Positions 14,753 through 26,714 of a DNA stretch of 33,480 nt are shown one piece after another. The notes under the pieces are model-generated. The model did no database searches and was not told the origin of the DNA. It was given only the letters and a program-made list of their open reading frames with translations. Within the stretch, counting starts at the first letter, position 1, and every line of letters begins with the position of its first letter. The stretch is from a virus, in IMG/VR virus record IMGVR_UViG_3300028591_000144; one strand, written 5' to 3'. Both the position numbers and the translations under genes were made by a program.

Positions 14753-14863
14753 ATGGGTTGGGGTTGGATTTGTGTGATAACTGGAATCTTAGTCTTTGGA
14801 ATAGCTTGGTATATTGATATTGTAAAACCACAGATTGATAAAATTTGTAAAAAAAATAAATAA
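14753..14863 (+). CDS. small membrane peptide (36 aa)
   Basis: SD AAAGGAGATAC. Single hydrophobic helix. Manual ORF. Confidence 0.5.
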   Translation: MGWGWICVITGILVFGIAWYIDIVKPQIDKICKKNK

Positions 14864-14906
14864 TAAAAAATAGAAGGAAGTAAACAGTTACTTAAATAAA
14901 TACATA

Positions 14907-14956
14907 GAGCGTCTTAAAGACGCTCCGTTTGCGTCTCACGCCAAGCAAACGGAGCG
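14907..14956 (+). repeat. hairpin-C family member with upstream alternative arm
   Basis: Arm gacgctc (14919-14925) can pair with upstream gagcgtc (14907-14913) or with downstream ggagcg in the 12-bp main stem. Confidence 0.65.
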
Positions 14957-15041
14957 AGTTTCGTTTATAGTCAAAATGACCAAAAATTTCATGACAAAAC
15001 CCCGGAGTTTTATGCAATTCATAGAATCCTGGAAAACAGTA

Positions 15042-15070
15042 TTGACATATTTTAAAAATTGCGGTATAAT
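15042..15070 (+). promoter_or_regulatory. sigma70-type promoter TTGACA-17-TATAAT
   Basis: Hexamers read from sequence. Confidence 0.8.
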
Positions 15071-15114
15071 GGGCTTGCCCGATGAGGGAAAGAACAAAAA
15101 ATAAGGAGATCATT

Positions 15115-15285
15115 ATGGATAACATGGCATTCGAACTGATGGAAGCAGAAAACACCATTCAGGAAGATTGGGAAAGATGGAAAGATGAATATGAAGATTT
15201 TGAAGAAGATATGGCAACAAACCCTTATGCCCCTATTGATGATATTGACTATGATATTGCAATTCATCCTTGGGACTATATTTAA
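15115..15285 (+). CDS. acidic small protein (56 aa), paralog of 11920-12078
   Basis: SD AAGGAGATC. Confidence 0.7.
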   Translation: MDNMAFELMEAENTIQEDWERWKDEYEDFEEDMATNPYAPIDDIDYDIAIHPWDYI

Positions 15286-15305
15286 TAATAAAGGAGAATC
15301 TACTA

Positions 15306-15560
15306 ATGAGCTGGACAGATATGTATGATACTCTTCACCTTAATGTTGGTGTAAGTAAAGAAGCCCTTGATCTTGCTTTTGGGCTTAATGGTTGCTCTGA
15401 AGAGACTGCCTGCGATATCCTCCGATATTATACTGGATATAATGACTTTGATCAGTATTTTGATTATGAGTCAGATGATGAAGAAGATTGCCTTGACGAG
15501 CTTTTCAATCTTGATGAAGGATTTGATCCTTATACAGGTTGTTATACCTACGATTGCTAA
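15306..15560 (+). CDS. highly acidic protein (84 aa)
   Basis: SD AAAGGAGAATC. Confidence 0.7.
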   Translation: MSWTDMYDTLHLNVGVSKEALDLAFGLNGCSEETACDILRYYTGYNDFDQYFDYESDDEEDCLDELFNLDEGFDPYTGCYTYDC

Positions 15561-15607
15561 ATAATCTCCTTTTTCTCCTTTTCTCCTCTCTTTTTTCTCT
15601 TTTGTGA

Positions 15608-15662
15608 TGGAGCGTCTAATTGGCGCTCCATTTGCGCGCGTCCCTCGCGCAAATGGAGCGTG
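15608..15662 (+). repeat. hairpin-C family member with triple-arm arrangement
   Basis: atggagcg (15608-15615), cgctccat (15625-15632), atggagcg (15654-15661). The middle arm can pair with either flanking arm. Preceded by a CT-rich tract 15566-15606. Confidence 0.7.
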
Positions 15663-15720
15663 TTTCATTTATGTAAAAATGTACTAAAAATCCAGGACAA
15701 ATATTGTGCATTTTACCATA

Positions 15721-15749
15721 TTGCATTTTTTCCTAATATATGGTAATAT
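15721..15749 (+). promoter_or_regulatory. sigma70-type promoter TTGCAT-17-TAATAT/TATAAT
   Basis: Hexamers read from sequence. Confidence 0.6.
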
Positions 15750-15782
15750 AATACCAAGAGATGAGAGGGGGGAGACCACTTA

Positions 15783-15935
15783 ATGAAAAAATTTATGTTC
15801 TATAATCATGAAGATGGTAATTGCTATTACGTCGTAGCTCAAAAGATAGAATATGCCTATGACATTATGTGTGATTATTTTGGTACTGAATATTTTGCCT
15901 GCTCATTTACTTATGAAGGAGAGATTGACAGATGA
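15783..15935 (+). CDS. hypothetical protein (50 aa)
   Basis: SD GAGGGGGGAG. Manual ORF. Confidence 0.5.
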   Translation: MKKFMFYNHEDGNCYYVVAQKIEYAYDIMCDYFGTEYFACSFTYEGEIDR

Positions 15936-16096
15936 ATAAAAATAAATGGTATTATGAAAATCCAATCACTGGTGAATTTACAGATGATCAGTCACTTGCC
16001 GAATGGTGGACATGGGATCACATTGATGTAAATTGTTGGAAGTGGTCGGACTATTTCAATAACTGGGGAGTCATAATGGTTTGGGAAGGCCAGTAA
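15932..16096 (+). CDS. Trp-rich small protein (54 aa)
   Basis: Start overlaps upstream stop (ATGA). Manual ORF. Confidence 0.5.
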   Translation: MNKNKWYYENPITGEFTDDQSLAEWWTWDHIDVNCWKWSDYFNNWGVIMVWEGQ

Positions 16097-16104
16097 AAAA
16101 GTTC

Positions 16105-16133
16105 TTGACAAACTAATACATTTCTGATATACT
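16105..16133 (+). promoter_or_regulatory. sigma70-type promoter TTGACA-17-TATACT
   Basis: Hexamers read from sequence. Confidence 0.75.
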
Positions 16134-16165
16134 ATAATTACAAAAGATAAGAAAGGAAAAAAACT

Positions 16166-16363
16166 ATGTGGTATACTTATAAGATTAATGATTCTGGCAA
16201 GGCAGTCCTCAGCAAGGCTTTTGAGAAAAAGGAAGACGCCATCCGTCATGCCTGCAAAACCCCCAAGGAAGCTACTTTTATTTCCAATACTGAGCCTGAT
16301 CTGCTCGGTAGGGCCTATAGTAATGACCCTAAATTTAATGCAACGAACTCCTCGGCCGCTTAA
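16166..16363 (+). CDS. hypothetical protein (65 aa)
   Basis: ORF track. SD AGAAAGGAAAAAAAC. Confidence 0.6.
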   Translation: MWYTYKINDSGKAVLSKAFEKKEDAIRHACKTPKEATFISNTEPDLLGRAYSNDPKFNATNSSAA

Positions 16364-16384
16364 ATGCGGCCTTTTTCTTTTTGC

Positions 16385-16424
16385 CGCTCGCTCCACGCAC
16401 GTTTCCTTGCGTGGAGCGAGCGAG
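16385..16424 (+). repeat. hairpin-C family member
   Basis: gctcgctccacgc-acgtttccttgc-gtggagcgagc. Confidence 0.65.
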
Positions 16425-16483
16425 TTTGCTTTATTGTATATTTTAGACAATTTTTAATAAAAATATTTATGCAAAATGCCATA

Positions 16484-16512
16484 TTGCAAAATTCCTAATA
16501 ATGTGATATATT
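16484..16512 (+). promoter_or_regulatory. sigma70-type promoter TTGCAA-17-TATATT
   Basis: Hexamers read from sequence. Confidence 0.7.
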
Positions 16513-16545
16513 ATAATCATCCAAGAGATAAAGGAGATCAAGATA

Positions 16546-16701
16546 ATGACTGAATTAATGGAAATGAAAGAAAAAGTTATAGCGCAGTATGGCAAAGACA
16601 GTTTTGAGGCCGGGTATATTCAATATATCTTTTCTAAACGTCCTACAGCATATTTTAAAAAAATTTGTATTGAATTGCTCACTAAAAAAAATAAAAAATA
16701 A
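16546..16701 (+). CDS. hypothetical protein (51 aa)
   Basis: SD AAAGGAGATCAAG. Manual ORF. Confidence 0.5.
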   Translation: MTELMEMKEKVIAQYGKDSFEAGYIQYIFSKRPTAYFKKICIELLTKKNKK

Positions 16702-16740
16702 TATAAAAAAAAACAAAAGAAAAGAAAGGAAATAAAAAAA

Positions 16741-17067
16741 ATGAAAACTAACATGACAGCCCACGCCAAATTTGATCGAGTCAACCGCCTGGAATATATC
16801 ATTAATACTATTGGTATTGGAAATGTAGTAGCTGAAATCTCTACTATTGATAAACAGGGACGAGCTGGCTTCCAGAAGCTGACAGATACAGGAGTTATTA
16901 TTATTCTCTCTGCTGATAATAAAACTATTGTCACTGCTTATATAGCTACCCCAGATCAGGCTTGCGCTGTTTATAAAACAGCAAAAAAAGTTAGCAGGGT
17001 GCCTGATGGACTGTATAGTAGAATCCGTAAAAATGAAGCTATTATGAAAAAGCAGCCTAAGTTTTAA
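16741..17067 (+). CDS. hypothetical protein (108 aa)
   Basis: ORF track. SD GAAAGGAAAT. Confidence 0.65.
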   Translation: MKTNMTAHAKFDRVNRLEYIINTIGIGNVVAEISTIDKQGRAGFQKLTDTGVIIILSADNKTIVTAYIATPDQACAVYKTAKKVSRVPDGLYSRIRKNEAIMKKQPKF

Positions 17068-17077
17068 TGTAAAAATA

Positions 17078-17110
17078 GGAAAGAGAAAAAAACTCTTTCC
17101 TATTTTTATT
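17078..17110 (+). terminator. rho-independent terminator
   Basis: aggaaagag-aaaaaaa-ctctttcct + ATTTTTATTT. Confidence 0.8.
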
Positions 17111-17111
17111 T

Positions 17112-17150
17112 GGCGTTTCCTTTGCGCGCGTTCCTTGCGCAGAGGAAACG
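17112..17150 (+). repeat. hairpin-C family member
   Basis: gcgtttcctttgcgc-gcgttccttgc-gcagaggaaacg. Confidence 0.65.
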
Positions 17151-17211
17151 AGTTATCCTTTTTGTTTACAATGTATAATTTTTTTTATATTTTTTTGTGC
17201 ATTATTACATA

Positions 17212-17239
17212 TTGCAAATTTCCTAAAAAGTGCTATAAT
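17212..17239 (+). promoter_or_regulatory. sigma70-type promoter TTGCAA-16-TATAAT driving a non-coding transcript
   Basis: Hexamers read from sequence. Confidence 0.65.
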
Positions 17240-17245
17240 CATAAT

Positions 17246-17345
17246 TGTCAAGGGGGAACGGAGAGAGTACGAGGCAAAAAGTCGTAAGACCTCTCGTGAG
17301 GGTGACATAATCAACGAGCCACGCGCCGTGAAAGTTTTTTTAAAA
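17246..17345 (+). ncRNA. candidate sRNA locus (family 1, copy 1)
   Basis: Own promoter and no ORF. Begins AATTGTCAAGGGGGA. Ends with hairpin plus AAAGTTTTTTT, just before the next promoter. Homologous start and end at 31965-32115. Confidence 0.5.
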
Positions 17346-17361
17346 AAAATAAGAAAACCCC

Positions 17362-17390
17362 TTGATATCTTTTCAGAAGTATGATATAAT
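17362..17390 (+). promoter_or_regulatory. sigma70-type promoter TTGATA-17-TATAAT (TG-extended)
   Basis: Hexamers read from sequence. Confidence 0.75.
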
Positions 17391-17425
17391 TAAATCACAA
17401 AAAAAATAAAAAGGAGATAAAAAAA

Positions 17426-17995
17426 ATGAATACTATTCTTGATTGTACTGTTACCACTCGTTGCCCCTTCTGCGGAAAATCCAATGATGTTAAAGTCAAT
17501 GAGATGGACTATCTTGATTGGCTGGATGGTAAACTGGCGCAGAAAGCATTCCCCTACCTCTCTGCTGATGAGCGTGAGATGCTGATTTCTGGCATCTGCC
17601 CTGCTTGCTGGGATTCTACATTCGGCTCTGATGAAGAGCCTGACCCCGATGAAGTAGACATTCATGGAAATACTTTTGGGGATGATGAAGAAGAAGAAAA
17701 TGAAAAAAATGAAGAAGATTCTGAGATGGAAAAATTGATGTCTGCGCTTACTGCTTACAACATCCCGTATGAAACGACTATTGATTGTACTGGAGAAGGT
17801 CTGCAAGTTTGGTATCCTTCGCGTGATGATAATATTTGTGACGTGATTTGTCATAAATATTCTTATGGCGGATCAGAAGGACTCCTGGAAATGATGGGCC
17901 TTGTCCCTGATGACTGGGGAGATAGCGTACAGGGATATCTGACCGCAGAAGAAGTATTCGGGCGTATTCACGCTAATTACTTTGGCACAGTTTAA
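17426..17995 (+). CDS. zinc-ribbon plus acidic-tail protein (189 aa). N-terminal 85 aa paralogous to 28387-28656
   Basis: ORF track. SD AAAGGAGATA. Motifs CPFCG...CPACWD. D/E-rich middle region. Confidence 0.75.
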   Translation: MNTILDCTVTTRCPFCGKSNDVKVNEMDYLDWLDGKLAQKAFPYLSADEREMLISGICPACWDSTFGSDEEPDPDEVDIHGNTFGDDEEEENEKNEEDSEMEKLMSALTAYNIPYETTIDCTGEGLQVWYPSRDDNICDVICHKYSYGGSEGLLEMMGLVPDDWGDSVQGYLTAEEVFGRIHANYFGTV

Positions 17996-18002
17996 TAAAA
18001 AA

Positions 18003-18058
18003 ACAGAGGAAATGCTTTGAGCGTTTCCTCTGCGCGCGTTCCTTGCGCAGAGGAAACG
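18003..18058 (+). repeat. hairpin-C family member with triple-arm arrangement
   Basis: cagaggaaa (18003-18011), tttcctctg (18023-18031), cagaggaaacg (18047-18057). The middle arm pairs with either. Confidence 0.7.
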
Positions 18059-18118
18059 TCTTTATATCATAGACAAAGTATACAAAAATCCAGGATAAAA
18101 GTTGTATATTATGTCATA

Positions 18119-18147
18119 TTGCATTTTCTCCTGATATATGGTATATT
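18119..18147 (+). promoter_or_regulatory. sigma70-type promoter TTGCAT-17-TATATT
   Basis: Hexamers read from sequence. Confidence 0.7.
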
Positions 18148-18179
18148 ATACTCACATAAGAGATAAGGAGATTATAAAA

Positions 18180-18374
18180 ATGCTTATTGACTATTTGTTT
18201 GAAAATGTAAATGAAGACAGTGATTGGTGCGGAGAGCAGTTTTTTGTAGAATGTAAAAAGAATGAAGACCCTTGGATTATAGTTAAAATGAACTTCTGCA
18301 CTACTGAAGATTTTGAATTAATTGGCGAATATACACCAGAAGAAGCAGAAATTTTAGGATATGATACCTATTAA
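18180..18374 (+). CDS. acidic small protein (64 aa)
   Basis: SD AAGGAGATTA. Start chosen at the SD-proximal ATG. Confidence 0.6.
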   Translation: MLIDYLFENVNEDSDWCGEQFFVECKKNEDPWIIVKMNFCTTEDFELIGEYTPEEAEILGYDTY

Positions 18375-18408
18375 GGTATCTACCATACATTAAAAAGGAG
18401 ATAAAAAG

Positions 18409-18633
18409 ATGAATCTTGAAAATTTGACTAATCGTGAGCGTTGCCTTCTGCGTGCAATTGGTATGCTTAAAGACCGTAAAAATTATTACGCCAGTATGCA
18501 TAAACCTGTTGATATTGATGTTACTGATAAAATGTATTGGGCCTATGATTCTGCTGTTGCAATTCTTGAGTCTGCGTGGGATGAAGATTTGGAAACACTG
18601 AATCAGTTTGATTATTTTGGAAAGGAAGACTAA
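18409..18633 (+). CDS. hypothetical protein (74 aa), operon-copy 1 gene A, paralog of 19696
   Basis: ORF track. SD AAAAGGAGATA. Confidence 0.7.
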   Translation: MNLENLTNRERCLLRAIGMLKDRKNYYASMHKPVDIDVTDKMYWAYDSAVAILESAWDEDLETLNQFDYFGKED

Positions 18634-18634
18634 A

Positions 18635-18856
18635 ATGCTTACTATTATTACTAAAGCTAACTCTGATTATTGGTATCAGTTTAAAGAAATTAACACTATT
18701 GAAGATATTCTTAGCCTTTACCCCAGATGCGTTGTAGAAAAAAATGATTATGATGAAAGTCTTGTCCCCTTTTGGGAAGGATTTAAAATAGAAGATATTC
18801 CTAATTTAAGGAAAGCAAAATGTCATATTATAATTTATAATGGCTATATAGAATAA
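18635..18856 (+). CDS. hypothetical protein (73 aa), operon-copy 1 middle gene
   Basis: SD GAAAGGAAGAC. Confidence 0.6.
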   Translation: MLTIITKANSDYWYQFKEINTIEDILSLYPRCVVEKNDYDESLVPFWEGFKIEDIPNLRKAKCHIIIYNGYIE

Positions 18857-18871
18857 AAAGGAATAAAATAA

Positions 18872-19060
18872 ATGTGGATTGAAGATTTGGTTAAAGCCCT
18901 TTATTTTTTGAATGCATCTGAATATAAGCATACAGTATGCATTGAAAAGATTGAAAAAGAATTAGTTTGGTTTTCAAATCATAAAACCATGCCTGTGCAG
19001 GTGCTTGCAAATTGTTATGACAATTATCTCAGAACAGGTGAAATTGTGAAACTTTGGTAA
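18872..19060 (+). CDS. hypothetical protein (62 aa), operon-copy 1 gene C, paralog of 20119
   Basis: ORF track. SD AAAAGGAATAA. Confidence 0.7.
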   Translation: MWIEDLVKALYFLNASEYKHTVCIEKIEKELVWFSNHKTMPVQVLANCYDNYLRTGEIVKLW

Positions 19061-19081
19061 AACAAAGTTTCACTTTTTTTA
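19047..19081 (+). terminator. rho-independent terminator
   Basis: gaaactttg-gtaaaa-caaagtttc + ACTTTTTTT. Confidence 0.8.
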
Positions 19082-19083
19082 TT

Positions 19084-19125
19084 GACGCCACCTTTGCGCG
19101 CGTCTCTTGCGCAAAGGTGGCGTCT
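19084..19125 (+). repeat. hairpin-C family member
   Basis: gacgccacctttgcgcgc-gtctct-tgcgcaaaggtggcgtc. Confidence 0.75.
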
Positions 19126-19182
19126 TTGCATCATAGACAAAGTCCCCAAAAATTAAAAACAAAAGTTGTGCATTATGCCATA

Positions 19183-19211
19183 TTGCAATTTTCCTAATTA
19201 TATTGTATAAT
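19183..19211 (+). promoter_or_regulatory. sigma70-type promoter TTGCAA-17-TATAAT
   Basis: Hexamers read from sequence. Confidence 0.75.
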
Positions 19212-19252
19212 AAGATTAATCAAAAGAAGAAAAATAAAAAGGAGATAAAAAG

Positions 19253-19429
19253 ATGAAAAATAAAAGAGATTGTGCTTGTTTGATGACTATTAAAGACTTG
19301 TATGATTGGGCAGTTGAGCAAGGTATTGAAGAATACATCCTATTTAAGTTTGATGTAGATGGTACAGTAAATAATTGTTTCACCTTTGATATTGAAGTTG
19401 ATGAAGATGAAAAAGCACTTATCCTGTAA
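19253..19429 (+). CDS. hypothetical protein (58 aa)
   Basis: SD AAAAGGAGATAAAAAG. Manual ORF. Confidence 0.55.
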   Translation: MKNKRDCACLMTIKDLYDWAVEQGIEEYILFKFDVDGTVNNCFTFDIEVDEDEKALIL

Positions 19430-19448
19430 TTAAGAAAGAAGTCACGCA

Positions 19449-19679
19449 ATGAAAGTTAGATTTATTTATACAAAGCAAGTAGAAGTAGAAAAAGAAGTAT
19501 CTGATGATTTTATTCCTCTCTTGGATGAAGACACAATGTATAGTCGTTCTTGGCTTGATTTAAATGAAGCATTTCGTGACCAAGCGTGGGAAATTTGGGC
19601 GCAGCTTGAAAAAGAACCTAACTTTTATCGACCTCTGGCTGTTATGACTGAGGATGATGATATTTTAGCAGAATATTAA
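19449..19679 (+). CDS. acidic protein (76 aa)
   Basis: ORF track. Confidence 0.6.
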   Translation: MKVRFIYTKQVEVEKEVSDDFIPLLDEDTMYSRSWLDLNEAFRDQAWEIWAQLEKEPNFYRPLAVMTEDDDILAEY

Positions 19680-19695
19680 AAAAGGAGATAAAAAG

Positions 19696-19896
19696 ATGAA
19701 TTCTGAAAATCTGACTAATCGTGAACGTTGTCTTCTGCGTGCAATTGGTATGCTTAAAGACCGTAAGAATTATTACGCTAATGCGTGCTGTGAAGAATAT
19801 TATGCTTATGATTCTGCCACTGCAATTCTTGAGTTTGCGTGGAACGAAAACTGGGAAGCGCTAAATCAGTTTGATTATTTTGGGGGGGAAAACTGA
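19696..19896 (+). CDS. hypothetical protein (66 aa), operon-copy 2 gene A
   Basis: ORF track. SD AAAAGGAGATA. Confidence 0.7.
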   Translation: MNSENLTNRERCLLRAIGMLKDRKNYYANACCEEYYAYDSATAILEFAWNENWEALNQFDYFGGEN

Positions 19897-19897
19897 A

Positions 19898-20116
19898 ATG
19901 AAAGCAAAAGTTGAATACATCACCAAAGTCGTGAAAGAGATTGAAGTTCCTGATAAATGGGCTGAATGGGCCGAATCAGGCTGGCAAGATGAAACGGTCT
20001 ATAAAGAGATCGAACAGTTTTGGCAAGACATTGCTAAGACAGAAGATGAATACTATTTTCAGCCAAGTGGCATTTATTATGGTAATAATTTTCAGTGGAT
20101 GATTGCGGAGTATTAA
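19898..20116 (+). CDS. acidic protein (72 aa), operon-copy 2 middle gene. Paralog at 29774
   Basis: SD GGGGGGGAAAAC. Confidence 0.6.
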   Translation: MKAKVEYITKVVKEIEVPDKWAEWAESGWQDETVYKEIEQFWQDIAKTEDEYYFQPSGIYYGNNFQWMIAEY

Positions 20117-20118
20117 AA

Positions 20119-20307
20119 ATGTGGATTGAAGATTTAACTAAAGCATTGTATTTTCTTAATGCATCTGATTATAAGTATACAGTTTGCATTGAAAAAATAG
20201 AGAAGAATGTCGTATTCTTTTCTAACAGACAATGCGTATCTGTAAAGCGTCTGGCTGATGCATACGATAAATATATTAAAACAGGTAAAATAGTAGATCT
20301 TTGGTAA
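20119..20307 (+). CDS. hypothetical protein (62 aa), operon-copy 2 gene C
   Basis: SD GCGGAGTA. Confidence 0.65.
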   Translation: MWIEDLTKALYFLNASDYKYTVCIEKIEKNVVFFSNRQCVSVKRLADAYDKYIKTGKIVDLW

Positions 20308-20323
20308 GGTCTACTATTTTATT

Positions 20324-20365
20324 GACGCCACCTTTGCGCGCGTCTCTTACGCAAAGGTGGCGTCT
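20324..20365 (+). repeat. hairpin-C family member (near-identical to 19084 copy)
   Basis: gacgccacctttgcgcgc-gtctct-tacgcaaaggtggcgtc. Confidence 0.75.
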
Positions 20366-20423
20366 TTTATCTTTTGAGTATATTGCACAATTTCCAGGCT
20401 ATATTTTTGTATATTTTTATAAT

Positions 20424-20452
20424 TGACTTTTTTCCTATTATACTGTATACTA
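20424..20452 (+). promoter_or_regulatory. sigma70-type promoter TTGACT-17-TATACT
   Basis: Hexamers read from sequence. Confidence 0.75.
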
Positions 20453-20485
20453 TAGACAATCCAAAAGATAAAGGAGAGAAAGACA

Positions 20486-20656
20486 ATGCGTAAAATTTAT
20501 TTTAAAGTGACTTATAAAAGACTTTGTGATAATCAACCTTGTATTATCTTCTGTAGAACGCTGGAAGAAGCTTATGCACGAATCGCTGAGAAGAAAGCTG
20601 AAAAACCTCCAAAATATTATGGATATAAAATTATTCCTATTAAATTAAAAGTATAA
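20486..20656 (+). CDS. hypothetical protein (56 aa)
   Basis: SD AAAGGAGAGAAAG. Manual ORF. Confidence 0.55.
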   Translation: MRKIYFKVTYKRLCDNQPCIIFCRTLEEAYARIAEKKAEKPPKYYGYKIIPIKLKV

Positions 20657-20680
20657 TTAAAGGAAAAGGAGAAATAAAAG

Positions 20681-20830
20681 ATGAGTACAAAAAATCCTTA
20701 TGCTATTAAAATGGATACAGAAACCCTTCAGCAGTACTTGGCTTTTCGCAATAAGCAGGGAGTTAAACCTGCAAAAAAAGGAAAAGGAAAAAAATACAGC
20801 CGTAATGATTTTAAAAAAGGAATTATTTAA
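20681..20830 (+). CDS. basic small protein (49 aa)
   Basis: SD AAAAGGAGAAAT. Manual ORF. Confidence 0.55.
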   Translation: MSTKNPYAIKMDTETLQQYLAFRNKQGVKPAKKGKGKKYSRNDFKKGII

Positions 20831-20849
20831 TTAAAAAGGAGATACTATT

Positions 20850-21026
20850 ATGGCACATTTTCAGGTAATTTTTGAGGATACTGTTCACGGCATCCAGATT
20901 AACCACTTTGACGAGTATGCTGATGCTCAGGAGTATTGGGATACTTACGCCGACCTGCCTACCTGCTATGCTGGTGAAATGATTGATCTCGATAATGAAG
21001 AAGTAATCTGGGAATTTGGAGAGTAA
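20850..21026 (+). CDS. acidic small protein (58 aa)
   Basis: SD AAAAGGAGATAC. Manual ORF. Confidence 0.55.
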   Translation: MAHFQVIFEDTVHGIQINHFDEYADAQEYWDTYADLPTCYAGEMIDLDNEEVIWEFGE

Positions 21027-21028
21027 TT

Positions 21029-21205
21029 ATGTACTGGAAAGATTTCCTTAAAGCAATTATTGATGAAATGCCCTCTCGTGATGATACTCGTATTTACATT
21101 CATGAGTATAAAAATGATTATGAAGTAGACTGCTATGAAATTATCAGTATTTCTAATGAGGGGTCAAACGATAGTATTTCTATCAATATAAAAAAAGTTG
21201 ACTAA
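21029..21205 (+). CDS. hypothetical protein (58 aa)
   Basis: Starts 2 nt after the upstream stop. Manual ORF. Confidence 0.5.
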   Translation: MYWKDFLKAIIDEMPSRDDTRIYIHEYKNDYEVDCYEIISISNEGSNDSISINIKKVD

Positions 21206-21270
21206 AGAGGGGAATTAATCCCCTCTAAAATCGCTTAGGCGCAGTTCATAATTTATTTACAATTCTTCTA

Positions 21271-21299
21271 TTGACTTTTTACAAAAAAGAAAGTATAAT
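21271..21299 (+). promoter_or_regulatory. sigma70-type promoter TTGACT-17-TATAAT (TTCATAATTTATTTACAATT upstream family)
   Basis: Hexamers read from sequence. Same upstream block at 28166 and 33196. Confidence 0.75.
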
Positions 21300-21344
21300 A
21301 ATATCTGTAGGAAAGAAAAAATAAAAAATAAAGGAGATAAAAAG

Positions 21345-21581
21345 ATGAAAGTTATCAGAGAAGCTGAAAAACGTGCAACTTATTTTTCAGACCTTCGTAT
21401 GGGTGATGTTTTTCTATTTTGTGAAAAACCATTTATTAAGATCTACACCTGCAAGATAAATAGTATAGAGAATAATACAATTATTAATGCTGTATGCCTT
21501 AATGATGGTGAAATATATGAATTTAATGCTTGGGATAAGGTAGAGTCTGTTAATGCTGAACTAACTATTAAAGTTAAATAA
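21345..21581 (+). CDS. hypothetical protein (78 aa)
   Basis: ORF track. SD AAAGGAGATAAAAAG. Confidence 0.7.
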   Translation: MKVIREAEKRATYFSDLRMGDVFLFCEKPFIKIYTCKINSIENNTIINAVCLNDGEIYEFNAWDKVESVNAELTIKVK

Positions 21582-21617
21582 TGAAGAAATTATTTAAGCT
21601 TTTGGAGATAAAAATAA

Positions 21618-21872
21618 ATGATAAAAGAATGGTTTGAATTAAAGAAACCTTATCATTTCGAAACGAATGATATTATTGCATTGCTAAATTTATTTAATAC
21701 TTTTGCTGTGATAGCGTTTGGGCTTATAGCTTCTTGGTTTGGGCTTGCAATTGCTATTATCTGCATCATTGATGACATTATTGAAGTAAGACGCTTTAAT
21801 CTTATGACGCTGCATCTTTCGATTGCTATTCTTAATGCTTATTTTCTTATGACTTTTTATAACATATTATGA
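21618..21872 (+). CDS. two-helix membrane protein (84 aa), tandem paralog 1
   Basis: ORF track. Confidence 0.65.
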   Translation: MIKEWFELKKPYHFETNDIIALLNLFNTFAVIAFGLIASWFGLAIAIICIIDDIIEVRRFNLMTLHLSIAILNAYFLMTFYNIL

Positions 21873-22123
21873 TGAAACAATTTTTTAAAATAGAAAAAAA
21901 ATATACTCCAGAGTGGAATGACTTTCGTAGCTTACTTACAGTAATTAATGTTCTTTTAGTCCTAAAATTTGGATTATCTATTTCATGGATAACTTTTGGA
22001 GTTGCAATTTTAGGAATCTGTAAAGATTTAACTGTAAGTAGACGAATTAATGATTTAATTATGCACTCTGCTAATGCTATTTTAAATGGTTATTTTCTTT
22101 TAATGTTTTATAATATCATATAA
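21869..22123 (+). CDS. two-helix membrane protein (84 aa), tandem paralog 2
   Basis: ORF track. ATGA overlap with upstream gene. Confidence 0.65.
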   Translation: MMKQFFKIEKKYTPEWNDFRSLLTVINVLLVLKFGLSISWITFGVAILGICKDLTVSRRINDLIMHSANAILNGYFLLMFYNII

Positions 22124-22127
22124 TATT

Positions 22128-22160
22128 TAGACCTATTGAAAAATATCAATAGGTCTTTTC
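22128..22160 (+). terminator. rho-independent terminator
   Basis: agacctattg-aaaaatat-caataggtct + TTT. Confidence 0.75.
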
Positions 22161-22200
22161 CACGCCTGCTTCACGCACGTTTCTTACGTGAAGCAGGCGT
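22161..22200 (+). repeat. hairpin-C family member
   Basis: acgcctgcttcacg-cacgtttcttac-gtgaagcaggcgt. Confidence 0.7.
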
Positions 22201-22260
22201 CTTTTACTTTATATATAAATTGCATAATTTCCAGGCTCTTTTTTTGTGTAATATGCCATA

Positions 22261-22289
22261 TTGCAATTTTCCTGATAGTATGTTATATT
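22261..22289 (+). promoter_or_regulatory. sigma70-type promoter TTGCAA-17-TATATT
   Basis: Hexamers read from sequence. Confidence 0.7.
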
Positions 22290-22320
22290 ATATTTAACCA
22301 AGAGAAAGGAAGAAAAAATA

Positions 22321-22863
22321 ATGAAGAAAATGAATTGCGTTCATCCTCGCAGAGCTTATAACCTGATGAAGTCTTTTATTAATACTGCCTCTGATATGAT
22401 TTACATGATTGATGATGAAACTGAAAAGGCAGAAATTCTTTTGCATAAAGGAGATAGTTTTATGGCTCTTCTTGGAGAGTGCATAAACTACGATAGCGAA
22501 CAGGAAATTTATTATAATTTTCCTGAACTGTGGGCTGAATCTTCTAAAATTTTTCGTGAGTATTGGTGCGCTAAATGCCCTATGTTGAAAGGGTTCTCTG
22601 ATATTACAATTTCTTTGCTTCATGAGCTGGGGCATCTTGAAACCAATGATGCAGTAAGAGAATATTTTCCAATTCATATCAGAAACCTCGCTATTAAAGG
22701 GGCAGAGGCTGTTGCTTCTAATTATAAAGAATTAAATTTTATTTATTTTGATCTTCCTGATGAAAAAGCAGCCACTGAATGGGCTATTGAATGGCTGTCT
22801 GATGCAGAAAATCGTAAAATTACTAAAAAATTTGAAAAAGAGTTTTTTAAGTGTTTTAAATAA
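22321..22863 (+). CDS. putative zinc metallopeptidase (HExxH) family protein (180 aa)
   Basis: ORF track. Motif LLHELGHLE (HExxH). Size and motif fit ImmA/IrrE-like or SprT-like small metallopeptidases. Confidence 0.65.
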   Translation: MKKMNCVHPRRAYNLMKSFINTASDMIYMIDDETEKAEILLHKGDSFMALLGECINYDSEQEIYYNFPELWAESSKIFREYWCAKCPMLKGFSDITISLLHELGHLETNDAVREYFPIHIRNLAIKGAEAVASNYKELNFIYFDLPDEKAATEWAIEWLSDAENRKITKKFEKEFFKCFK

Positions 22864-22904
22864 TAATTAAAAATAAATTATAAAGATAAGGGGCTGTCTT
22901 TAAG

Positions 22905-22943
22905 GCGGCTCCTTTGCGCGCGTTCCCTGCGCAAAGGAGCCGA
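22905..22943 (+). repeat. hairpin-C family member
   Basis: ggcggctcctttgcgcgc-gttccc-tgcgcaaaggagccg. Confidence 0.7.
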
Positions 22944-23003
22944 GTTTAAGTTATTGTAAAAAAAGCATAATTTTTTATATTTATTTTTGTATAATTTAAC
23001 ATA

Positions 23004-23032
23004 TTGCATTTTTCCTAATATTATAGTATAAT
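23004..23032 (+). promoter_or_regulatory. sigma70-type promoter TTGCAT-17-TATAAT
   Basis: Hexamers read from sequence. Confidence 0.7.
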
Positions 23033-23064
23033 AAGATCAAAGAATAAAAAAAAGGAGATAAAAA

Positions 23065-23217
23065 ATGTATTATACAATTCTCTATTATAAAGATTGGCCT
23101 GTGCATACTTCTAAAAAGTTTGAAACTTGGGAAGAGGCTAATAACTGGGGAAAAGAACACATTAGGAAGAAACACGGTTCAAATAAATATAAATGGTATA
23201 AAATAAAAGCAGATTAA
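23065..23217 (+). CDS. basic Trp/Tyr-rich small protein (50 aa)
   Basis: SD AAAAGGAGATAAAAA. Manual ORF. Confidence 0.5.
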   Translation: MYYTILYYKDWPVHTSKKFETWEEANNWGKEHIRKKHGSNKYKWYKIKAD

Positions 23218-23278
23218 AAAACTGCTTTTATTTATACATCGAATCAAAAAGAAAAATAAAAAAATCTTAAAAAACTAC

Positions 23279-23307
23279 TTGACAAATTGTCAGGACTATA
23301 CTATAAT
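23279..23307 (+). promoter_or_regulatory. sigma70-type promoter TTGACA-17-TATAAT
   Basis: Hexamers read from sequence. Confidence 0.8.
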
Positions 23308-23341
23308 GAAATCACAAAAGAGATAAAGGAGATAAAAAAAA

Positions 23342-23506
23342 ATGAAAGTAAAAGAATTGATCGAACTGCTTAAGACCTATGATGAAGATACTACAGTTTA
23401 TGTTTGGGACGAGACAGGATATTATGGGAAAAAAATTATAGTAAATAATCAGAATTATAAGTTTACAGAAGAAAAAGCTATTCTTTTAGATCACCTTGAT
23501 TTTTAA
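23342..23506 (+). CDS. hypothetical protein (54 aa), N-terminus paralogous to 24786
   Basis: SD AAAGGAGATAAAAAAAA. MKVKELIELLKTYDED matches MTVKELMNILSKYDED. Confidence 0.55.
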   Translation: MKVKELIELLKTYDEDTTVYVWDETGYYGKKIIVNNQNYKFTEEKAILLDHLDF

Positions 23507-23517
23507 TAAAAAACTTA

Positions 23518-23546
23518 TTGACAAATAGTCCGGTCTGTACTATAAT
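23518..23546 (+). promoter_or_regulatory. sigma70-type promoter TTGACA-17-TATAAT
   Basis: Hexamers read from sequence. Confidence 0.8.
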
Positions 23547-23580
23547 ATAGATAGAAAGCAAGAGAAAAGGAGATAAAAAA

Positions 23581-23853
23581 ATGGATTTTTTTGAACTTGT
23601 CACAATAGAACCTGTTTATGGTCTTTGCCATTATTATTACTTTTATCCTGTTGGGGTACATCATACATGGTATTTGACTCTTGATAGCAACTATCCTAGT
23701 AAGTTGCTGATGTTAATTAAAGACAGAAATGAAACGCCCCTTTATTTAACCAAAATTTCTTTCTTTCAGTATATTAAAAATAAGTATCTACGAAAAGCAA
23801 CGAGCCGTTTCTTTTATGGAAAACGTATAAATTGGGAAAAAGAGAAACTTTAA
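23581..23853 (+). CDS. hypothetical protein (90 aa)
   Basis: ORF track. SD AAAAGGAGATAAAAAA. Confidence 0.65.
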   Translation: MDFFELVTIEPVYGLCHYYYFYPVGVHHTWYLTLDSNYPSKLLMLIKDRNETPLYLTKISFFQYIKNKYLRKATSRFFYGKRINWEKEKL

Positions 23854-23881
23854 AAAAGTTTCTCTTTTTTAAAAAAAAGTA

Positions 23882-23910
23882 TTGACGAATGACCGGGCCT
23901 GTGCTATAAT
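23882..23910 (+). promoter_or_regulatory. sigma70-type promoter TTGACG-17-TATAAT
   Basis: Hexamers read from sequence. Confidence 0.75.
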
Positions 23911-23942
23911 GAAATTACAAAAGAGAAAAGGAGATAAAAAAA

Positions 23943-24098
23943 ATGAAAAAGTATATTATCACTTATCGTTCTTTTAAAACCCACTGGGATAAAGAAGTCT
24001 ATACTGAAAAAGAAAAAGAGATAGCAGAATGGCGTTTCAATTCTTTAATGGAATGTGAAAATGCTGATAATGTAAAAATGGAAATTAGAGAAGATTAA
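23943..24098 (+). CDS. hypothetical protein (51 aa)
   Basis: SD AAAAGGAGATAAAAAAA. Manual ORF. Confidence 0.55.
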   Translation: MKKYIITYRSFKTHWDKEVYTEKEKEIAEWRFNSLMECENADNVKMEIRED

Positions 24099-24127
24099 AA
24101 AAGTCTTCTCTTTTTTTTAAAAATATA

Positions 24128-24156
24128 TTGACAAATAACCAGTCTTGTGCTATACA
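24128..24156 (+). promoter_or_regulatory. sigma70-type promoter TTGACA-17-TATACA
   Basis: Hexamers read from sequence. Followed immediately by terminator 24157-24188. Confidence 0.6.
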
Positions 24157-24188
24157 GACCCTTACACTGAGTAAGGGTCATTTTTTTT

Positions 24189-24250
24189 GGCAACTTACGC
24201 TCAGCCGCGCGCTGGCCGGCGTCCCTGGGTCAGCGCGCGGTTTTTGACGT
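24189..24250 (+). other. GC-rich (about 75 percent) island with hairpin ccgcgcgctg...cagcgcgcgg + TTTTT
   Basis: Composition sharply unlike flanks. Non-coding. Lies between two promoters. Confidence 0.5.
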
Positions 24251-24298
24251 GTAGTATAATCCAGAAAATTTTTGTGCATTTTGACGAACGATTTAGAG

Positions 24299-24327
24299 TT
24301 GACAACTACGCCCGAATGTGGTATAGT
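24299..24327 (+). promoter_or_regulatory. sigma70-type promoter TTGACA-17-TATAGT (TG-extended)
   Basis: Hexamers read from sequence. Confidence 0.7.
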
Positions 24328-24358
24328 ATAAGCACAAAAAGAAAAGGAGATACAAATC

Positions 24359-24559
24359 ATGGAAGAATTTAATAATTTTGAAATCTTTTTCCGTACTCGT
24401 AATAGTTGTGTTATTAAGGTGCCTAAAAATCTTAAAAATAAAAATGAGATTAGAGAATTTATTATTGATAAAATTATTAATGATGAATTAGAAAGCTGGA
24501 TTGATAAATGGTTTGATTTTGAAATTGAAGATTTTGAAATTGTAGAAGAGGAAGAATAA
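24359..24559 (+). CDS. acidic protein (66 aa)
   Basis: ORF track. SD AAAAGGAGATAC. Confidence 0.65.
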   Translation: MEEFNNFEIFFRTRNSCVIKVPKNLKNKNEIREFIIDKIINDELESWIDKWFDFEIEDFEIVEEEE

Positions 24560-24562
24560 AAA

Positions 24563-24766
24563 ATGTATAAAACAGTATGGAGCATTTATTATAATGGAGA
24601 CAAAACAGAGCTGACTTGGTATCATTTTGGTTCTGCTCCTAAATTCCCTACTTGGTACATGGAAGCAAATACAGTTTATGAGATTGAAATGATTTGGAAT
24701 GTGAAACTTGTTTTCAATTTCAATACATTTATGAAGTGTCTGACTCATACTTACATTATAAAATAA
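24563..24766 (+). CDS. hypothetical protein (67 aa)
   Basis: ORF track. SD AGAGGAAGAATA. Confidence 0.6.
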   Translation: MYKTVWSIYYNGDKTELTWYHFGSAPKFPTWYMEANTVYEIEMIWNVKLVFNFNTFMKCLTHTYIIK

Positions 24767-24785
24767 AAAAAAAGGAGATAATAAA

Positions 24786-24992
24786 ATGACTGTTAAAGAA
24801 TTAATGAATATCCTGAGCAAGTATGATGAGGATATGATTGTCCGCGTAATTGGCGGCGAAAGTGAATCCGGTGAGTGGGCCGAACTGGAAGTCGGAAAGG
24901 AAATCAAAAGGCCTTTTATCGATTGCGAAGGTATAGAGAGATGGTTTTACACTGACTTTGATGGTGAAGTCATCCTGGAAGAGAGCTACTAA
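24786..24992 (+). CDS. acidic protein (68 aa)
   Basis: ORF track. SD AAAAGGAGATAAT. Confidence 0.65.
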   Translation: MTVKELMNILSKYDEDMIVRVIGGESESGEWAELEVGKEIKRPFIDCEGIERWFYTDFDGEVILEESY

Positions 24993-25027
24993 GCTCTCTT
25001 CTTTTGCTTCTAGTTGATAAAAAATAA

Positions 25028-25056
25028 TTGACTTTTATTTTTTTTTATGCTATACT
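25028..25056 (+). promoter_or_regulatory. sigma70-type promoter TTGACT-17-TATACT
   Basis: Hexamers read from sequence. Confidence 0.75.
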
Positions 25057-25088
25057 AAATTATAGTATAATTATAAGGAGTTAAATTA

Positions 25089-25295
25089 ATGAAATTGTTT
25101 CAGGTAAAAATAAAGTATACTTTTGTGAATAGTAAAACGACTTATTTTAGCATTAATTATGTCCTTGCAGAGAATATTGACCACATTGAAGAAATAATTA
25201 AAAACTGGATTACAGAAGAAGACTCTGAAGCTATAATTTTAAACTTTGAGGCGCATGAATTGCCAATGATTGAACAGGTATTGCCGGGCTGGTAA
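25089..25295 (+). CDS. hypothetical protein (68 aa)
   Basis: ORF track. SD TAAGGAGTTA. Confidence 0.6.
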   Translation: MKLFQVKIKYTFVNSKTTYFSINYVLAENIDHIEEIIKNWITEEDSEAIILNFEAHELPMIEQVLPGW

Positions 25296-25328
25296 TACCT
25301 GCTTTTTTTATATTTAGAAAAAAAACTA

Positions 25329-25357
25329 TTGACTTTTTATTTATTATATGTTATTAT
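25329..25357 (+). promoter_or_regulatory. sigma70-type promoter TTGACT-17-TATTAT
   Basis: Hexamers read from sequence. Confidence 0.65.
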
Positions 25358-25390
25358 ATATATAAGATAAATAAAGGAGATAAAAAAATT

Positions 25391-25669
25391 ATGACTTTTA
25401 TTCTTAATAAGTGCTATGGTGGCTGGTCGATTTCTGATTTTGCTAAGGAACAGCTGGGCCTTGATTCTAACTACCCTGACAGGGATGAAGTAGATGAAAA
25501 GAAACTGGCAGAATTGATTAATGAGTATGGCTCTGAGAAGTGCTCTGGACGTAGTGCCTGGCTTAAAATAGTTGAAATCCCTGATAATGCTACCGATTGG
25601 GACATTGATGAGTATGATGGCATTGAAAGAATCGTCTATGTTATTGATGGGAAACTAAGGTATGCCTAA
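25391..25669 (+). CDS. acidic protein (92 aa)
   Basis: ORF track. SD AAAGGAGATAAAAAAATT. Confidence 0.65.
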   Translation: MTFILNKCYGGWSISDFAKEQLGLDSNYPDRDEVDEKKLAELINEYGSEKCSGRSAWLKIVEIPDNATDWDIDEYDGIERIVYVIDGKLRYA

Positions 25670-25677
25670 TTAAATAT

Positions 25678-25710
25678 AAAGAAGGAAGAAAATATTCTTC
25701 CTTCTTTTTA
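25678..25710 (+). terminator. rho-independent terminator
   Basis: gaaggaagaaaatattcttccttc + TTTTT. Confidence 0.8.
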
Positions 25711-25711
25711 A

Positions 25712-25750
25712 AGCGCTGGGTCTTCGAGTGCTTGCACCCGAAGACTCAGC
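25712..25750 (+). repeat. hairpin-C family member
   Basis: gcgctgggtcttcg-agtgcttgcacc-cgaagactcagcg + TCTTTAAG. Near-identical copy at 27272. Confidence 0.7.
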
Positions 25751-25812
25751 GTCTTTAAGCTTTTTATATAAAATGTACAATTTCCAGGATTATTTTTTGT
25801 ATAATATTACCT

Positions 25813-25841
25813 ATTGCTTTTTTCCTGAAATAGTAGTATAC
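25813..25841 (+). promoter_or_regulatory. sigma70-type promoter TTGCTT-17-TATACT driving a non-coding region
   Basis: Hexamers read from sequence. Confidence 0.6.
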
Positions 25842-25847
25842 TATAAT

Positions 25848-26135
25848 CGTTCCAAGGGAAATGCACTTAATCCTTGAGAACAGTGTGAATGGACAATACA
25901 CTTGACTTCGAACACACTATAATCAAAAGAAGATAGTGTTGACTTTGGGACTTTTACCAGTTTATATTTTTGTTTCAAAAGGCAAACAAAGGGAGAATAA
26001 ACTGGCGCTCGGCAGGCGTTTAGTGCAAAACTGCCTGCCGATGTGTGAAATGCGCTTACCAAAAAAATAGAAAAAAAGATTAAAAAAATTGGAAAAACGC
26101 ACTTAACTTTTGTTTTTAATAATCATATAGAAAGT
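25848..26135 (+). ncRNA. candidate non-coding RNA locus (family 2, copy 1), upstream of tRNA-like gene
   Basis: Own promoter and no credible ORF. Starts ATAATCGTTCCAAGGGAAA. Contains stem-loop ggcaggc...gcctgcc. Homologous start at 27401. Confidence 0.45.
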
Positions 26136-26214
26136 GAGAAGAACCTTTGACAGGCAAAGGTCACTGTTCGAGTCAGTAAAGTGGTCACGATGGGTTCAAC
26201 TCCCATTCTTCTCA
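26136..26214 (+). tRNA. tRNA-like gene, best fit anticodon CGA (Ser). 79 nt, no encoded CCA
   Basis: Cloverleaf folded by hand. Perfect 7-bp acceptor gagaaga/tcttctc. D-arm cttt-gacaggc-aaag. Anticodon loop TTCGAGT (U33, R37). T-arm atggg-TTCAACT-cccat. Variable arm of 11 nt is atypical for Ser. Confidence 0.55.
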
Positions 26215-26230
26215 AAAAACAAAAAGATAC

Positions 26231-26259
26231 TTGATAAATTACCAAAAGTATGGTATAAT
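26231..26259 (+). promoter_or_regulatory. sigma70-type promoter TTGATA-17-TATAAT (TG-extended) with about 125-nt purine/pyrimidine-tract leader
   Basis: Hexamers read from sequence. Leader contains agagagaagagagaa and ttcttctctctctt complementary tracts. Confidence 0.7.
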
Positions 26260-26700: not shown

Positions 26701-26714
26701 AATTTAAAAAGATC

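Follow-up and report, generated by a model that had tools for sequence, protein, structure and literature searches.

Two neighbouring transcription units in a 33,480-nucleotide stretch of viral DNA (IMG/VR record IMGVR_UViG_3300028591_000144; the window, meaning that whole stretch) carry paralogous copies of two small genes, A and C, on either side of unrelated middle genes, X1 and X2. The arrangement is probably the product of ordinary gene-by-gene shuffling in the hypervariable early region of an uncultured cattle-rumen phage, through duplication or import of operons together with ORF-precise insertion of single genes. An earlier note described two three-gene operons; promoter and hairpin positions define larger units, of four genes in TU1 (U64-A1-X1-C1, 18180-19060) and five in TU2 (U58-U76-A2-X2-C2, 19253-20307) (Table 1).

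Table 1. Genes and predicted signals of the two transcription units, with the X2 paralogue elsewhere in the window
Feature	Positions	Strand	Description
Hairpin, module 5' of TU1	18021..18059	+	GC-rich, 16 bp; belongs to 13-copy family
Promoter, TU1	18119..18147	+	sigma-70-like: TTGCAT, 17 nt, TGnTATATT; consensus match only (module alignment)
U64	18180..18374	+	opens TU1; 64 aa, pI 4.05; RBS-supported start
A1	18409..18633	+	74 aa helical protein
X1	18635..18856	+	73 aa, between A1 and C1
C1	18872..19060	+	62 aa alpha/beta protein, final gene of TU1
Terminator-like hairpin	19046..19073	+	intrinsic-terminator-like, with T run; overlaps C1 stop codon
Hairpin, module between TU1 and TU2	19084..19124	+	17 bp; module and stem alignment
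Promoter, TU2	19183..19211	+	sigma-70-like: TTGCAA, 17 nt, TATAAT; predicted
U58	19253..19429	+	opens TU2
U76	19449..19679	+	TU2 gene; profile E 8e-4 to X2 family
A2	19696..19896	+	66 aa, A1 paralogue
X2	19898..20116	+	72 aa acidic protein, between A2 and C2
C2	20119..20307	+	62 aa, C1 paralogue, final gene of TU2
Hairpin, module 3' of TU2	20324..20364	+	module and stem alignment
Promoter, following unit	20423..20451	+	sigma-70-like; predicted from sequence
Y72	29774..29992	+	X2-family paralogue, different operon

The earlier note had staked the paralogy of A and C on alignment statistics, and support is strong for both genes. Pairwise protein alignment gives 50/74 identities for A1 against A2 (68%, E 6e-34) and a gap-free 42/62 for C1 against C2 (68%, E 2e-32). 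The DNA homology between the units falls into two blocks: 18392-18637 against 19679-19900 (78%), and 18870-19127 against 20117-20367 (76%). It stops exactly at the X start codon (ATG at 19898 in X2) and restarts exactly at the C start codon. Synonymous divergence (dS) is 0.52 for A1/A2 and 1.49 for C1/C2, about three-fold apart, and each copy of A and C has nearer relatives in other phages than in the adjacent unit: A2 shares 92% identity with the second of the A genes in L011, and C2 shares 89-94% with the C genes in L006, L011, and L024 (L0xx labels denote related metagenomic loci). By these measures the A and C pairs appear to have separate histories and do not co-diverge. The A, C, X1, and X2 families are all under purifying selection (dN/dS 0.03-0.67, mostly <0.3), and hence are real genes.

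The middle genes, as the earlier note proposed, are unrelated: BLASTP of X1 against X2 finds no similarity (E 12), and comparison of the two family profiles gives a probability of 0.07%. Also borne out is the X2 paralogue, Y72. Direct comparison aligns 45% identical residues across just 29 positions (E 3e-7), and an iterated profile links the two proteins over their full length via intermediates from other loci. The X2-family profile weakly recruits U76, just 5' of A2, which is probably a remote member of the family. X1 has five clusters of homologues, all elsewhere and in other gene contexts; those in L047, L050, and L052 adjoin neither A nor C. X2 adjoins A without C in L016, and in L006 it sits after an additional 57-aa gene. 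Both X1 and X2 thus also occur apart from A or C.

The earlier note had called for a survey of further middle-gene variants, and one covering 55 related metagenomic loci did reveal additional arrangements. A directly adjoins C, with no middle gene, in about seven lineages, often with overlapping stop and start codons (L024, L025/26, L035/36, L038, and L039; with divergent A-like genes in L021 and L033/34). One lineage has A-A-C, and another A-57aa-X2-C. In some loci A is followed by a gene other than C, and L016 and L047 have A without C. Overall, A then C, whether direct or with inserts, is found in about 11 of 14 A lineages. At least 10 lineages have C but no A; the genes that precede C in these settings are unrelated, of at least five types, and C nearly always closes its transcription unit. 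The C gene of L021 is 89% identical to C1, yet the gene 5' to it is only a very remote A relative; A2-type A travels with C2-type C in L006, L011, and L024. Among the 55 loci, the only centres found between A and C are X1, X2, and the 57-aa gene plus X2. The adjacency of A and C, the separate occurrences of the genes, and the unequal dS values together indicate an optional insert in the middle position rather than a subunit on which A and C depend. The leading genes recur as well: U64 homologues often lead C-terminated operons in relatives; U58 is 83% identical to the gene 5' of A in L006-L010; and a 92% homologue of U76 stands before the A-C pair of L024.

Junctions within these operons are tight. 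At boundaries between A and the next gene, the A stop codon (TAA; TGA in A2) is followed by A-ATG, with one additional A in L047. Where C follows another gene, the junction is mostly stop-A(A)-ATG, or else the start codon overlaps the preceding stop; at the A-C boundary such an overlap (ATGA, or 11 nt) is seen in L021, L035, L038, and L039. The X1-C1 boundary is exceptional: it has a spacer of 15 nt and a Shine-Dalgarno sequence of its own.

Between operons, the boundaries are of a different kind. TU1 and TU2 are each bounded by a module of ~160 nt, in which a GC-rich covarying hairpin precedes a sigma-70-like promoter. The module is present in about 13 copies, with stems of 15-17 bp and compensatory changes in 11 of 17 stem pairs; the hairpin after C1 agrees with the one after C2 at 40 of 41 positions. 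A search of the window against Rfam at gathering thresholds gave no RNA family matches. The X genes are not flanked by these modules, and the X swap, like most rearrangements in the relatives, occurs at plain gene boundaries within operons.

The window contains about 75 tiny, mostly acidic ORFan genes on the same strand (median 72 aa), as well as a tRNA. At least four more paralogue pairs lie within it, so duplication is common in the region. No hallmark gene (capsid, terminase, or another) came to light in the window, and its phage identity is therefore inferred from relatives and neighbours. Homologues of C are carried by two large contigs, one viral from IMG/VR (181.8 kb) and one from ENA (181.7 kb); genes nearby have matches to phrog_20187, phrog_192, and phrog_20898; and an exonuclease encoded on the latter, a related contig (locus L002), has homologues among the genes of Enterococcus phages of 134-142 kb. 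Protein neighbours resemble Enterococcus and Staphylococcus phage genes. A reading of the window as the leading region of a conjugative element was set aside because the relatives lie on viral contigs with phage-family neighbours. Recoding of TAG stop codons, which might have altered the gene models, was also considered and rejected: the window has no convincing TAG-containing ORF, and the nine genes all end in other stop codons.

Database searches found little. Roughly 22 window proteins were scanned, with almost no Pfam or PHROG matches; for the nine genes and Y72, searches of Pfam, PHROGs, PADLOC, and NCBIfam returned sub-threshold noise only, and a PDB sequence-profile search gave no match. 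The DNA of 17000-21500 matches no deposited phage or plasmid. No A family was found in IMG/VR, and no C homologue in 185,579 bacterial and archaeal reference genomes. An exhaustive C profile search recovered only about 29 clusters of tiny proteins besides P0080; this 1692-aa N-x-T-rich repeat protein was rejected as a compositional artefact. All four families (A, C, X1, and X2) are almost entirely confined to rumen metagenomes. The AF2 model of A1 is a three-helix hairpin (pLDDT 80) and the predicted C-family fold is very confident, but Foldseek against PDB found no fold match (best E 1.2 for A and 0.5 for C).

These observations suggest a general model. The region would be part of a hypervariable, host-takeover-like arm of a large uncultured rumen phage, presumably expressed early, in which one-directional tiny genes form short operons, each bounded by a hairpin-promoter module. 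A and C would normally adjoin and be translationally coupled, as in the relatives, and each A-C boundary here would have taken up a different small gene; insertion and deletion of X are both compatible with the data. Whole operons may be duplicated or imported by recombination between the repeated modules, in the way described for the PeSL cassettes of T4-type phages. Because the X genes lack flanking modules, such recombination cannot account for the swap inside the operons. Single ORFs may instead be gained, lost, or replaced at gene boundaries, most of which share the short stop-A-ATG junction and a Shine-Dalgarno sequence within the end of the upstream gene. This shared sequence suggests that boundary microhomology could mediate the X swap, with selection retaining only the ORF-precise products.

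The junctions could conceivably do more. They may constitute a grammar dedicated to inserting cassettes the size of an ORF, with A and C a conserved functional pair whose junction is a preferred docking site. This is a long shot. If true, the grammar would be a second, finer shuffling system beneath the modules, and promoterless small genes would enter and leave early operons by a specific process, not by random illegitimate events filtered by selection. A somewhat less improbable proposal, though still an unlikely one, is that the A and C proteins work together as a two-part functional module (such as an effector and its partner or regulator, acting on the host), conserved as a translationally coupled pair, with the X genes as passenger morons tolerated at the junction. 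In favour of a genuine functional pair are the frequent adjacency of A and C, in which the stop codon of one often overlaps the start of the other, the recurrence of A then C in most A lineages, purifying selection on both genes, and the accompaniment of C2-type C by A2-type A in three loci. However, each gene also occurs without the other, C repeatedly behind unrelated genes; the C1-type C of L021 stands beside a very remote A-like gene; the dS values of the two pairs lie three-fold apart; and tight junctions join all neighbouring genes here, not A and C alone.

The earlier note favoured cassette exchange at a polymorphic defence or anti-defence locus, with A and C as a paired scaffold and X as the interchangeable subunit that supplies specificity, toxin, or immunity. 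Part of this holds: the flanks are truly paralogous and the centre is replaced with gene precision. Conserved flanks around non-homologous centres are shared with polymorphic toxin-immunity and defence cassettes, and the unrelated centres are of nearly equal size (73 and 72 aa). X2, moreover, is strongly acidic, as are many phage inhibitor proteins, and L006 supplies a third centre (57 aa plus X2). The scaffold itself is highly improbable, already weakened by the loci with adjacent A and C. The centre is missing in about seven lineages, X1 and X2 occur apart from A and C, and the flanks themselves reshuffle, with C lacking A in some loci, A lacking C in others, and dS unequal. Two or three centre types in 55 loci fall far below polymorphic toxin-immunity diversity. 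Nor does a toxin-immunity or defence-type locus find support in the proteins, which have no predicted signal peptide, transmembrane segment, or recognisable toxin domain, and for which Pfam, PHROGs, PADLOC, NCBIfam, PDB, and fold searches yielded no toxin, immunity, or defence domain; the setting is that of phage early genes, not a bacterial island. Scarcely credible is an assembly artefact that merged two strain variants of one operon, even though repeated modules favour mis-joins and an independent same-sample assembly (ENA k141_3027199) ends at ~19.41 kb of the window, just past TU1. The copies are just 76-78% identical and differ in gene content, and the U58-A and U76-A adjacencies are present in L006 and L024. 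Furthermore, TU1, the intergenic module after it, and the first 53 U58 codons all recur at 100% identity on the independently assembled ENA contig, so the join from TU1 to TU2 has been seen twice.

Gene-by-gene shuffling, the preferred reading, makes the two units examples of phage early-region diversification by operon-level duplication and ORF-precise insertion; they represent no new system. Four small protein families are defined (A, C, X1, and the X2 family), of which the C family, with its confidently predicted fold lacking a structural neighbour, may be a reasonable target for host-inhibitor or anti-defence screens of phage early proteins.

Tailed-phage mosaicism is characterized by novel joints exactly at gene boundaries and by single small genes between otherwise adjacent genes. 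Classical morons have their own promoter and terminator. The joints described here likewise fall at gene boundaries, with one small gene between A and C, but X1 and X2 have neither promoter nor terminator of their own and are spliced in at a translational-coupling junction.

The hairpin-promoter modules resemble the PeSL (promoter-early stem-loop) cassettes of T4-type phage hyperplastic regions (Arbiol et al. 2010, PMC2839356; Comeau et al. 2014, PMC4122927), where indels, replacements, and duplications of PeSL-flanked genes separate related phages. In both cases, a repeated composite intergenic motif combines a stable stem-loop with a strong sigma-70-like promoter (predicted here), thereby carrying its own transcription signals, and the motifs are concentrated among small variable ORFan genes. 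There are also differences. The hairpin here is longer (15-17 bp), has a conserved loop, and lies ~60 nt 5' of the -35 box, whereas the PeSL stem-loop is part of the promoter or directly beside it; no modules flank the X1/X2 swap, which is internal to operons; and the neighbours are like those of large phages of Gram-positive hosts, not T4. Given these Enterococcus- and Staphylococcus-like neighbours and the absence of a DNA match among deposited phages, the modules are best regarded, by analogy, as a PeSL analogue and not a member. PeSL-like modules with strong covariation support would thus be present in a phage lineage unrelated to T4.

A second likeness is to genes 37-60 of Bacillus phage SPO1, its host-takeover module (Stewart et al. 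1998, as cited in PMC6873191). The likeness lies in a block of at least some two dozen small, early (here presumed) genes grouped into short operons that have strong promoters (here predicted) and strong ribosome-binding sites; the functions of most of the products are unknown, and some of them act jointly within an operon. The proteins encoded here have no sequence similarity to SPO1 proteins, and the block, at 33 kb or more and about 75 genes, far exceeds that of SPO1, while its proteins are smaller (median 72 aa). In organisation, nevertheless, the window is like an SPO1 early-gene block, with its phage identity drawn from relatives, and its proteins may have a host-directed role.

The two neighbouring sets of tiny genes, A1-X1-C1 and A2-X2-C2, share their first and third members. 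The earlier note's claim of paralogy is upheld by alignment statistics far beyond chance: A1 and A2 have 50/74 identities (E 6e-34), and C1 and C2 have 42/62 without gaps (E 2e-32). The sole gap between A1 and A2 is a deletion of eight residues from a central loop, whose length also varies across the wider A family. The middle genes are, as claimed, unrelated: BLASTP found no similarity between X1 and X2, and profile-profile comparison gave a probability of 0.07%. The proposed X2 paralogue, Y72, also stands. Its pairwise match is confined to the N-terminal 29 residues (E 3e-7), and iterated profile searching of all fetched loci unites the two at full length via intermediates. The same profile weakly recruits U76, the gene just upstream of A2 (E 8e-4). 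In all four families (A, C, X1, and X2) dN/dS is well below 1. At the DNA level, homology block 1 runs from the common ribosome-binding site (TAAAAAGGAGATAAAAAGATG) to the X start codon, and block 2 from the C start codon through the downstream hairpin.

This hairpin belongs to an intergenic module of about 160 nt, with three copies around the two units and about ten more elsewhere in the window. Each module comprises a GC-rich hairpin of 15-17 bp with a conserved 7-nt loop (consensus CGTYYCT across 13 copies); an AT-rich spacer; and a match to the TTGCAA/TATAAT-type promoter consensus. A sigma-70-like promoter follows each of the 13 hairpins at a distance of about 60 nt. Stem cells are paired in 92% of cases, versus 35-56% with the partner slid, and 11 of the 17 stem pairs show compensatory changes; the hairpin is therefore under selection as a structure. 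The repeated modules set the limits of two predicted transcription units, TU1 and TU2, so that the three-gene operons first described give way to units of four and five genes. Because no long T run follows any of the 13 hairpins, and an extra canonical terminator is present in TU1, the large hairpin may serve in RNA processing or regulation and not as the terminator itself. The hairpins after C1 and C2 are alike at 40 of 41 positions, whereas the genes themselves are only 70% identical, a contrast suggesting that the modules have undergone exchange or homogenisation.

Coordinates of the features discussed (window positions unless a related locus is named)
Feature	Coordinates	Strand	Description
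A1	18409-18633	+	ORF, strong Shine-Dalgarno sequence
X1	18635-18856	+	ORF, strong Shine-Dalgarno sequence
C1	18872-19060	+	ORF, strong Shine-Dalgarno sequence
A2	19696-19896	+	ORF, strong Shine-Dalgarno sequence
X2	19898-20116	+	ORF, strong Shine-Dalgarno sequence
C2	20119-20307	+	ORF, strong Shine-Dalgarno sequence
TU1	18180-19060	+	predicted unit, U64-A1-X1-C1
TU2	19253-20307	+	predicted unit, U58-U76-A2-X2-C2
U76	19449-19679		gene upstream of A2
Y72	29774-29992		X2 paralogue
DNA block 1	18392-18637 / 19679-19900		78% identity
DNA block 2	18870-19127 / 20117-20367		76% identity
Modules	17998-18185, 19062-19258, 20302-20490		hairpin-promoter
Hairpins (12899-32881)	12899, 13381, 14920, 15621, 16383, 17111, 18019, 19082, 20322, 22160, 22903, 30243, 32836		13 copies
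Terminator	19046-19073		extra, TU1
Paralogue pair	17426-17995 / 28387-28656
Paralogue pair	11920-12078 / 15115-15285
Paralogue pair	4613-4837 / 5898-6032
Paralogue pair	21618-21872 / 21869-22123
tRNA-Ser	26135-26215		anticodon CGA
HELGH protein	22321-22863		180 aa
HELGH homologues	L011 7608-8153 and 8275-8844; L006 4941-5492		L011 copies in tandem
Endonuclease-like gene	L011 6755-7495	-	three in-frame TAG codons

A different repeat grammar occupies the first third of the window (1-11335), in units of about 1.1 kb: AGGTAGACGGAACGCCTTAAAGACTCCG occurs 12 times, each just upstream of ribosome-binding sites; AACCGCACGTGCTGGGTAGGGCTGGGCAGCAAAAGCCGAG occurs eight times; and a terminator with an AT-rich promoter-like element occurs ten times. 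The 28-mer repeat of this region has no predicted stable fold and no exact match in IMG/VR.

Related metagenomic loci (55 in all) were fetched, and A, C, X1, X2, U58, U64, U76, and Y72 were mapped by tblastn and HMMs. Within this survey, A-X1-C and A-X2-C occur in this phage only. Relatives carry U58-A-57aa-X2-C (L006-10); A-A-C (L011-15); A abutting C directly (L024, L025/26, L035/36, L038, L039); a divergent A-like gene abutting C (L021, L033/34); A-X2 with C absent (L016-18); or A directly upstream of an unrelated 63-aa gene (L047). The search for further middle-gene variants that the earlier note proposed gave one, the 57aa-X2 pair, and the middle gene is often absent. At least five unrelated gene types precede C, among them genes for a 58-aa protein, a Cys-rich 54-aa protein, and an 80-aa coiled-coil protein, and X1 homologues adjoin neither A nor C (L047, L050, L052). 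C is almost always the final gene ahead of a long structured intergenic region. Many loci that otherwise diverge (L006, L011, L021-L025, L027, L030-L032, L035, L037, L038, L040) have a CCCGGGC-containing motif no more than about 40 nt downstream of the C stop codon; the motif is absent after both window copies of C.

Synonymous divergence differs between the flanking genes (dS 0.52 for A1/A2, 1.49 for C1/C2). A2 and C2 share 89-94% identity with their counterparts in L006, L011, and L024; for C1, compared with L002 and L021, the figure is 82-89%. In L021, a C1-type C stands beside an A-like gene that is very remote. The two units therefore did not arise by recent duplication of an A-C block in place. 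The histories of A and C are partly separate, with the A|C boundary a recombination point. That A and C form a functional pair with the X genes as passengers is unlikely, and ranks below the explanation favoured here, shuffling of modules and single genes. Two readings in the earlier note, a toxin-immunity or defence-type polymorphic locus and an A-C scaffold with a variable specificity subunit, fail on their defining features: the centre is optional, and no relevant domains are present.

The mosaicism is gene-precise, its junctions are conserved, and the operons are bounded by modules. At every boundary between A and the next gene, the A stop codon (TAA; TGA in A2) is followed by A-ATG, with one additional A in L047. 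Boundaries before C are mostly stop-A(A)-ATG junctions or overlapping stop and start codons; X1|C1 differs in having a 15-nt spacer and a Shine-Dalgarno sequence of its own. The G-rich Shine-Dalgarno sequence usually sits within the end of whatever gene is upstream. Duplication is common in this region: four further paralogue pairs (43-80% identity) include two 84-aa membrane proteins encoded in tandem, and two proteins of 189 and 89 aa that share an N-terminal CxxC domain resembling a zinc ribbon. Whole operons would be duplicated or imported via recombination between repeated hairpin-promoter modules; single genes would be inserted or removed by rare recombination at short shared boundary sequences; and selection for intact coupled ORFs would filter the products. 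An independent assembly from the same sample, ENA contig k141_3027199 (L001), ends inside U58 (window ~19413), just after TU1, a break that repeats or strain heterogeneity at the boundary between TU1 and TU2 could explain.

The window holds about 75 plausible genes on a single strand (median length 72 aa, median pI 4.8), with recognisable domains limited to a GNAT fold, DUF8033, and zinc ribbons. Its one tRNA is embedded among small genes. Homologues of A and C were found in metagenomes only, nearly all rumen or cattle; those of C are carried by two contigs, one of 181.7 kb from ENA and a viral one of 181.8 kb from IMG/VR, and none was found among 185,579 reference genomes. Genes close by match phrog_20187, phrog_192 (exonuclease), and phrog_20898, and in Enterococcus phages of 134-142 kb the exonuclease from a related contig has homologues at 39% identity. 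The window itself showed no hallmark gene. We infer that this is the early, host-takeover-like arm of an uncultured large phage.

A 180-aa protein with a HELGH motif has homologues 54% identical in related loci, one relative weakly matching M78/IrrE peptidase. In the endonuclease-like gene of L011, a related rumen phage contig, one in-frame TAG takes the place of an expected Q in the motif FDGA*HF, suggesting TAG-to-Q recoding in this phage group. TAG ends 1 of 75 genes in the window, and no TAG-containing ORF there looks real.

The A model is a predicted three-helix hairpin (pLDDT 80) with no significant structural neighbour in a fold search, and exhaustive profile searching with C gave only about 29 clusters, all similarly tiny proteins. 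Neither result points to a function. The SPO1 host-takeover module (PMC6873191) offers an analogy, on which the proteins would most likely be made early and act on targets in the host.

The two-operon finding is genuine, has a good explanation, and is ordinary by the standards of phage biology. [quoted passage not shown]
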